Made by a program: the position numbers and the translations under genes
The notes under the pieces: model-generated
Told to the model about the DNA's origin: nothing
Database searches by the model: none
What the model saw: only the letters and a program-made list of their open reading frames with translations
Shown here: positions 14,261 through 15,617 of the stretch, piece after piece
How positions within the stretch are numbered: the first letter of the stretch is position 1
Layout of the letters: every line of letters starts with the position of its first letter
Assembly: GCF_003018255.1 (NCBI RefSeq)
Contig: NZ_CP027440.1
Source: Escherichia coli
Lineage (GTDB): Bacteria; Pseudomonadota; Gammaproteobacteria; Enterobacterales; Enterobacteriaceae
Strand: one strand, 5' to 3'
DNA length: 64,000 nt

Positions 14261-15617
14261 GTGCATATGTTTAAGCCCAGGATTTGCAGCTGGATAGGTT
14301 TACTTCCCCTGTTTATGCTGAGTCTTCCAGTACAGGCGGAACTTCGATGTGTTGTAAATGCAGTTGATATTGAACCATTTTTTTCTGCGGCTACCGCTGA
14401 AGATAAACAACAAGTTGAACAAGCTATCAACAGTAGCGTGAATCTTGTCCCCGTCGGTTTATCTGCATCGGACTGGAAAGTGCATCGTGGCGATTTAATG
14501 GTAGAAGGTAATATAGAGAGTAATCAAAAATTGATTGTTCTTGGCAATTTGACAGTCAAAGGTAATATTTCCACTTTCTCTCTTTCTAATCCATGGGTTA
14601 TTCTCGGTAACGTAACGTAACGTAACGTAACGTAACGTAACGTAACGTAACGTAACGTAACGGCAACGAATATAGTTACGGATTCACCACTGTTAATTAC
14701 CGGTTCGATAAATGCAAGTGGACTGGTATTTATCGACTCATATTACGATAATCCGTCTACGATTAAGGGAAGTATTAATGCGCGCGGGATATTTATCAAT
14801 GACATAATTGCACCTGTTGTTGCATCTTCGACAAATAGTGAATTCATGGTCCGTGCGAGTGACAAAAATGACACTGAAAATGTCAAAAAAGCGCTGATGA
14901 TAATAAATCCTGATGCATATTATTGGGGCCTAATAAATGATGAAGATGCTCTGAAAGAAATTTTTAAGCGAAGCAATATTCGCATAGCAGGGAATGTCTG
15001 TAATCAGATGAAAAAAGAAGCGCTGTTTCGCCCTAAGTCTTCTCCTGAATTATTGCAGGAATTGCAAATGCTGGATGAAGGCAACGTTGCTGCATTTGAA
15101 GGACGAGACATTGCGACATTTGATCTTGCCATAATGCGAACTCTCCCAAGGCTTAAAGGAATTACAGCAAAACACGCCACGAAATGATATTTGGGCGAAG
15201 TTTTTTCTGAGGCAGGAAAACAGTTCCCGTGCGCAGGTTAACGAAGCGTTACGTGTTTATTATGCACTAGAACCCGATGCGTTAGCACAACTGGATGTAC
15301 TGGCAAAACAACCGGATCGTATATGGTGGAGTACACTGGCGAAAAGCAATCTCACATTTTTCAAGTTCGGCGCACTTAACAACCGCCACACACCGCCTGC
15401 AGTACTGGCGGCAGAAATTGATCCCGAGTGGTGGATTGTGGCGATGAATAATCCCCGTTTTCCAGTTGATGTATTAAAGGCGAGGCTGAAACGTGATCCT
15501 TTGCTGGCGTTAGAGCTTGTTAACCCTGAACTGGATTTAGTCCGCCAGCTGGCGCTTAACGGTAAGACGCGCGCAATACGGGAACAAGCGATGAGAAAAC
15601 TTGATGAGTTGCATTGA
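14261..15617 (+). pseudogene. ydbD: ydbD-like gene disrupted by a stop-containing GTAAC repeat and a later frameshift
   Basis: Signal-peptide ORF (14261-14620) stops inside the repeat; the same frame resumes at 14663 and runs to TGA 15185-15187; a third segment continues in another frame (open from 15135) to TGA 15615-15617. Confidence 0.6.
14607..14661. repeat. (GTAAC)x11 perfect pentanucleotide microsatellite
   Basis: Counted directly: 11 tandem GTAAC units, 55 bp, inside the ydbD reading frame. Confidence 0.95.

Follow-up and report, generated by a model that had tools for sequence, protein, structure and literature searches.

A length-polymorphic GTAAC array in a pseudogene remnant of ydbD in Escherichia coli

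Background

Short tandem repeats are characteristic of the contingency loci of Haemophilus influenzae and Neisseria, where tetranucleotide tracts are found in LPS genes and the pentanucleotide CTCTT in opa genes. In the loci used for MLVA the unit measures 6-39 bp; most of these loci are intergenic or in frame, and their distribution is species-wide. Pentanucleotide repeats are also involved in human expansion disorders, and hairpins are the standard explanation for the expansion bias.

According to a review (PMC7015867), E. coli K-12 lacks pentanucleotide repeats and has no tetranucleotide repeat of more than four units, so that the array in ydbD considered here is unusual for E. coli. When 100,044 species of bacteria and archaea, each represented by one genome, were searched for GTAAC arrays of at least five units, 15 stretches of DNA were obtained and none of them was enterobacterial; this count and the review agree with the preliminary description of this DNA, made from its letters only, which had called pentanucleotide arrays of this length unusual in E. 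coli. These few arrays of other prokaryotes include multi-array contigs, such as those of Moorena producens 3L and Brachyspira catarrhinii Z12. Concerning the ydbD locus itself, its pseudogene status is already present in the RefSeq annotation, while for the polymorphic pentanucleotide array no description was found in the literature on ydbD, on GTAAC tandem repeats, on literal multi-unit strings (searched in full text) and on E. coli pentanucleotide SSRs.

Compared with the SSR loci of H. influenzae and Neisseria (for reviews on SSRs see PMC2651432, PMC3315296), the ydbD array resembles them in being a probably hypermutable repeat with a unit that is not a multiple of three, located in the 5' coding part of a signal-peptide gene and varying in copy number between close relatives, and slipped-strand mispairing would be the mechanism common to both. 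Unlike those loci, the ydbD array has no ON state, its unit contains TAA, the gene is destroyed downstream and the length of the array has no effect on the reading frame. A second likeness is with the VNTRs of E. coli used in MLVA and with the intragenic repeat of tolA (PMC3477136), which show conserved flanks and a strain-variable copy number that can be used as a length marker. The ydbD array differs from the MLVA loci because it has a 5-bp unit, belongs to one clade, lies in a pseudogene and originated at a site of two units, stable in 3754 other genomes. The gene also carries a deletion which is similar to textbook short-direct-repeat deletions and pseudogene decay in E. coli and Shigella, with 8-bp repeats bounding the loss and one of them kept, and there is nothing unusual in it. 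Finally, the strands of (GTAAC)n are predicted to fold with four Watson-Crick pairs and one mismatch per unit, similarly to CAG/CTG hairpins with their periodic mismatches (PMC7015867); unlike structure-prone repeat expansions, however, the ydbD array is tiny (20-105 bp), and the resemblance may be taken just as a lead. The ydbD array is a VNTR like any other, its mechanism is ordinary and it does not represent a new kind of biological system.

We analysed a 64-kb stretch of E. coli DNA, called here the window. It is highly probable, in our opinion, that its positions 14267-15617 are the remnant of a ydbD gene hit by two lesions and that the array is a slippage-driven, lineage-restricted VNTR which drifts without selection on its length.

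Results and discussion

The GTAAC tract and the ydbD locus

The raw sequence contains a perfect (GTAAC)x11 at 14607-14661 on the plus strand, inside ydbD and between pdxI and ynbA. Tandem Repeats Finder reported it at 14607-14662 with a period of 5, 11.2 copies, 100% matches and GTAAC as consensus, as the preliminary description had proposed when it placed a perfect eleven-unit array inside a signal-peptide ORF. The three-unit probe GTAACGTAACGTAAC gave nine matches in the window, all of them within the tract, against an expected count of 0.00 in 100 dinucleotide-preserving shuffles of the window. The copies are head-to-tail, perfect and far above chance, as in a microsatellite, and the tract is the sole array of its kind in the 64 kb. 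The features of the locus are the following.

14267..14620, plus strand: ydbD fragment 1, signal-peptide-like N-terminus, YdbD residues 1-117, 91% amino acid identity to K-12
14607..14661, plus strand: GTAAC microsatellite, (GTAAC)x11, in place of the ancestral GTAAC-GTGAC
14663..15187, plus strand: ydbD fragment 2, in the frame of fragment 1, YdbD residues 118-286, 95% amino acid identity to K-12
15156..15163, plus strand: deletion junction, the one copy left of the 8-bp direct repeat AAGGAATT
15153..15617, plus strand: ydbD fragment 3, in a different frame, YdbD residues 615-768 including DUF2773, 98% amino acid identity

The identity of the gene, already proposed as ydbD, was confirmed both by its position and by its similarity to K-12. 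The gene order is pdxI (ydbC) - ydbD - ynbA, the pdxI and ynbA ORFs of the window flank the locus, annotated relatives are colinear, and in its retained parts the region is identical to K-12 ydbD at about 97% of the nucleotides. The K-12 product has 768 residues, on which Pfam finds DUF2773 at residues 688-768 (E=2e-45) and a weak bactofilin match at residues 78-138 (E=0.05), within which the repeat site falls (residue 117/118); PF10971 also matches the small ORF that is called at the position of fragment 3 in relatives. The remnant in the window measures about 1.36 kb, versus 2.31 kb in K-12. Position and homology are thus those of the ydbD family, while the intact frame of about 768 codons is missing: the locus is a pseudogene of this family and no functional member, and RefSeq labels the ydbD loci of relatives as pseudogenes ('frameshifted; internal stop').

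Translation of the tract gave stops in three of three plus frames and in none of the three minus frames. Having TAA in all three plus frames, the array stops the ydbD ORF at 14618-14620, so that fragment 1 ends as ...VILGNVT* on a TAA created by the repeat itself. The start of this fragment is GTG 14261 in the ORF list, while RefSeq places it, in relatives, at the ATG equivalent to 14267 (as in the colinear record of APEC O2-211). Fragment 2 crosses the deletion junction out of frame and ends at the TGA at 15185-15187; fragment 3 is open from 15135 and keeps the native stop at 15615-15617. The coordinates given earlier for the tract, the stop and the reading segments are all correct when compared with the raw sequence, the ORF list and the translation, which also bore out that three or more units put TAA in every plus frame. 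Concerning the minus strand, no ORF of at least 30 aa spans the array, though its frames are stop-free there, and an Rfam scan of 14000-16000 found no RNA element.

It had also been suggested that only the length of two units leaves the frame open. We collapsed the tract to two units and translated it, and the first two segments fused in frame as ...ILGNVTATNIVTD..., the matching stretch of K-12 YdbD being ...ILGNVTATNIVAD..., as that suggestion implies. Since at least three units always put TAA in frame, every expanded state yields the same 117-aa product and none restores ydbD.

The ancestral site and the 1001-bp deletion

At the repeat site K-12 and the other intact alleles read GGT AAC GTG ACG GCA ACG (G N V T A T), that is GTAAC-GTGAC. 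The allele of the window can therefore be described as one synonymous G>A change (GTG>GTA) plus nine extra units; as the 3' end of the array has no GTGAC unit, a plain duplication of the first unit is insufficient as an explanation. The preliminary description had read the tract as an expansion by nine units (45 bp) of a 2-unit site: the net size is right, whereas the second ancestral unit, GTGAC, is imperfect and the synonymous change is needed as well. The alignment that it proposed as a check, to K-12 and other strains with a count of the units, gave the expected +45 bp at the repeat, and intact alleles have there a site of 2-unit length.

A global alignment to K-12 revealed just two substantial intragenic differences, the +45 bp at the repeat and a loss of 1001 bp at 15155/15156. 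In intact alleles (K-12, PapM-32-1) AAGGAATT occurs twice, at a distance of exactly 1001 bp and as part of the longer imperfect match AAGGAATT(T/A)CAGC(T/A)AA, while the window keeps one copy, at 15156-15163. Direct repeats thus bound the lost segment in the intact allele and a single copy remains, as after a slipped-mispairing deletion. The deletion takes out YdbD residues ~287-614 and, with about 328 codons missing, ydbD is irreversibly dead at any repeat length. Because 1001 is not a multiple of three, the frame changes near 15156. A further frameshift had been noticed at this place before; the change of frame is real, but it is not a small frameshift, its cause being the 1001-bp deletion between the AAGGAATT copies.

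Survey of complete genomes

The survey set consisted of 5426 complete E. coli genomes, and queries were kept short, in such a way that each 28-base megablast seed must take in the diagnostic base or the junction. Sequence of ydbD was found in 4477 of the 5426 genomes, and most of the query was covered in 3857; no match was obtained in 949, and a partial one in 620 more. The ancestral GTAAC-GTGAC site, which doubles as positive control, is present in 3754 of the complete genomes. The exact-seed search found an array of at least three units in 75 of the 5426 (about 1.4%), and two perfect units in none of them. A joined query for the ancestral site and the deletion junction found the two together in 0 of 5426 complete genomes; it added 76 genomes to the ancestral-site set, which would be junction-only matches and would place the exact junction 42-mer in about 76 genomes. 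With a looser query the deletion allele was found in 78 genomes.

All the array-bearing genomes examined also carry the 1001-bp deletion, and neither lesion was seen alone. The preliminary description had considered that alleles with three or more units, if expressed, would speak against it: alleles with such arrays do exist, in about 75 genomes, and all those examined are pseudogenes that carry the deletion. We also used a chimeric query favouring full-length ydbD with an expanded array, and no such allele was present among its 60 best-ranked matches, which were alleles of 2-unit length with a span of 1055 bp and a coverage of at most 96%. Two metagenome scans found neither a precursor nor an array without the deletion; they yielded two array-bearing contigs, one having 11 units and the deletion, the other ending at the contig edge. 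A protein search with the 'repaired' N-terminal 284 residues returned just truncated or partial cluster representatives and no intact allele of the same clade. The truncated 117-aa product, on the other side, is found in 2556 blocks of a large assembly collection, which indicates that the allele is common in public data.

Array and deletion being fully linked in our sample, either order of the two lesions fits. It could be hypothesized that the expansion came first, as a knock-out of ydbD favoured by selection (for example in an avian or extra-intestinal niche), and that the 1001-bp deletion is later decay. Perfect linkage is as compatible with this order as with the reverse one, the coding segments are still 91-98% identical to the K-12 protein, suggesting a recent inactivation, and decay is also seen in the neighbourhood, where ynbD has a nonsense codon in the window's sublineage. 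Nevertheless we regard a selected first expansion as unlikely, though with some real chance of being correct: there is no sign of positive selection, the absence or truncation of ydbD in many unrelated E. coli fits simple dispensability, and an intermediate having the array without the deletion is missing from the 5426 complete genomes and from the two metagenome scans.

Copy number variation

Across related genomes we found 4, 5, 7-15, 18, 19 and 21 units, that is at least 14 length alleles, with flanks that are 99-100% identical; such copy number polymorphism between conserved flanks in a population is that of a VNTR. The differences between match spans are always whole multiples of 5 bp. 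Among the 60 genomes listed, for which the number of units was inferred from the match span (and rounded in four of them for a 1-bp difference elsewhere in the query), the distribution was 4 units in one genome, 5 in one, 8 in 7, 9 in 17, 10 in 15, 11 in 5, 12 in 5, 13 in one, 14 in 2, 15 in one, 18 in 2, 19 in one and 21 in 2. Four further genomes have 7 units. Counts at the sequence level confirmed 4, 7, 9, 10, 11, 14, 18, 19 and 21 units, always in perfect arrays with identical flanks and a common junction.

The deposited assemblies of GPEC606, GPEC1042 and GPEC1165 have 18, 19 and 21 units and differ by 0-1 SNP, with no other indel, over 49.7 kb. From this comparison it appears that the length shifts on a timescale almost free of point mutations. 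The strain E166 was sequenced twice and has 9 units in each case, an agreement that speaks against noise in the assemblies.

Assemblies are known to err in the length of tandem repeats, and one could ask if the tract, or its length, is an artefact of sequencing or assembly. The probability of this is, in our view, negligible: about 75 complete genomes, obtained independently by many laboratories in many countries, have the perfect array with identical flanks, it is also found in other NCBI assemblies and, with 11 units, in one metagenome contig, its lengths vary solely in exact steps of 5 bp, an ordinary read is longer than these arrays of 20-105 bp, and the two sequencings of E166 gave an equal count. 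The artefact was therefore rejected on the basis of the independent complete genomes and of the other assemblies that carry the array.

A different reading places the array in a phase-variable (contingency) gene as its mutable part, with slippage toggling the secreted YdbD on and off in the way of the tetra- and pentanucleotide tracts in surface genes of Haemophilus and Neisseria. Although the tract is located in the 5' coding region directly after a signal-peptide-like N-terminus, with a 5-bp unit that is not a multiple of three and a copy number that varies strongly between close relatives, TAA occurs in each plus frame from three units upwards and the sole open state, two perfect units, is missing from all 5426 complete genomes. 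Moreover the frameshifting deletion of 1001 bp accompanies the array in every array-bearing genome examined, so that no tract length can yield full-length YdbD, and copy numbers, in the genomes counted by match span, follow no modulo-3 pattern. We consider phase variation very improbable here, since the polymorphic repeat of a contingency gene is present while reversible ON/OFF toggling and intact downstream coding are not. That this is no simple on/off frame switch had been anticipated in the preliminary description, and the stops in all frames, the missing 2-unit state and the deletion support it.

Possible origin and mechanism

In the explanation that we prefer, that of a doubly lesioned remnant with a freely drifting array, the synonymous GTG>GTA change would have turned GTAAC-GTGAC into two perfect units, and replication slippage would then have expanded the array. 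The 1001-bp deletion would be due to slipped mispairing or illegitimate recombination between the two AAGGAATT copies, and deletion and microsatellite would be two independent lesions of ydbD. As no length restores the frame and the deletion is irreversible, the length would be free of selection acting through the protein and would drift; this neutrality, which we infer from the lack of any ON state, is consistent with an array that probably moves up and down rapidly without selection on its length. It may be that the length of the array affects transcription into ynbA-D or local DNA structure.

A loop of 5 nt exceeds the loops that MutS-dependent mismatch repair of E. coli handles efficiently. 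Being poorly corrected by this system, such loops would make the array unstable even in repair-proficient cells. Hairpins formed by the quasi-palindromic unit (ACGT+A) on either strand would also favour slippage, and a role for them is plausible. Folding predictions indicate that both strands can form hairpins in which one A·A or T·T mismatch lies between successive 4-bp ACGT stems, the energy calculated for 55 nt as DNA being about -15 kcal/mol. When the same five bases are arranged in all 12 circular orders, GTAAC ranks second for hairpins, and 8 of the 12 fold comparably or moderately well; a dinucleotide-preserving shuffle gave for the array hairpin a z of about 0.3, a control that is uninformative for a pure repeat. 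According to these models the hairpin potential of GTAAC is real, though not unique to its base order.

A stronger proposal would be that (GTAAC)n is an expansion-prone hairpin former, born of one synonymous substitution and unstable far above the level of point mutation in mismatch-repair-proficient wild E. coli, or else that selection favoured its first expansion as a one-way, irreversible knock-out of ydbD in the ancestor of the ST117-related clade. We judge this proposal improbable, a speculation at the present stage. If the array were really expansion-prone in this way, the ydbD locus would provide a natural model, in a bacterium, for the instability of pentanucleotide repeats.

Carrier strains and use of the array

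The carriers comprise poultry strains of ST117 type and a related set of isolates, mainly from humans. APEC O78:H4 strains and APEC O2-211, the latter belonging to ST117 (PMC6256689), are among the many carriers that come from poultry. In most ST117-type relatives a copy of IS200C (about 711 bp) is inserted between pdxI and the ydbD remnant, at the site corresponding to ~14242 of the window, and this copy is absent there in the window and in its closest relatives. These relatives, 99.7% identical to the window over 21 kb, come mainly from humans, lack IS200C and have 8-10 units. The presence of the array allele in both sublineages implies that it is older than at least two sublineages, or that it moved between them.

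The window and APEC O2-211 are 99.1% identical, with differences that are patchy, and the stretch around ydbD, from 11 to 17 kb of the window, is nearly identical. Over 604-49935 of the window the comparison with APEC O2-211 is a mosaic, in which blocks with 10-40 SNPs per kb-bin (for example at 4-10, 18-25 and 49 kb) are opposed to blocks with 0 SNPs (25-32 and 11-16 kb). This patchy divergence suggests patches of recombination.

The locus offers a clean natural history, in which a site stable in 3754 genomes became, through one synonymous change, a microsatellite of 4-21 copies. The array could serve as a cheap and high-resolution length marker for the sub-typing of ST117 and related poultry or extra-intestinal E. 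coli, and its length tells apart strains with no more than 0-1 SNP between them in 50 kb. Annotation and scans of phase variation should take such cases into account, because a polymorphic intragenic repeat following a signal peptide mimics a contingency locus and cannot function as one here.

Other features of the window

Downstream of ydbD, codon 275 of ynbD (19872-19874) has a CAG>TAG nonsense change compared with APEC O2-211, and in E04, the closest relative, ynbD is annotated with 'internal stop'. The operon adjoining the dead ydbD is thus also decaying in the sublineage of the window.

On the other side of the locus, relatives colinear with the window have the 3' remnant of an HTH regulator gene, likely feaR, at 12181-12387 on the minus strand, abutted by a 3' remnant of paaX at 12388-12540, after which paaY and pdxI follow. 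K-12 has the feaB-tynA-paaZ-paaA..K block at the position of ~12181-12540, and this block appears to be deleted here, a loss that, like the ynbD stop, is a further sign of decay next to ydbD.

A composite perfect tandem repeat was found at 40483-40566, in the intergenic region tehB-ydcL, made of AGCCCCTTTTTCGGC x2 followed by CTTTTTCGGCATTGACTATGT x3 and bracketed by the inverted pair AGCCCCTTTT...AAAAGGGGCT. It is polymorphic too, APEC O2-211 being short by one 21-bp unit.

Matches above the Rfam gathering score were obtained for the MicC sRNA at 2922-3042 (plus strand), for the RydC sRNA at 29608-29671 (minus strand) and for the sok antitoxin RNA at 30231-30382 (minus strand), beside hokB; all three are ordinary features of E. 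coli.
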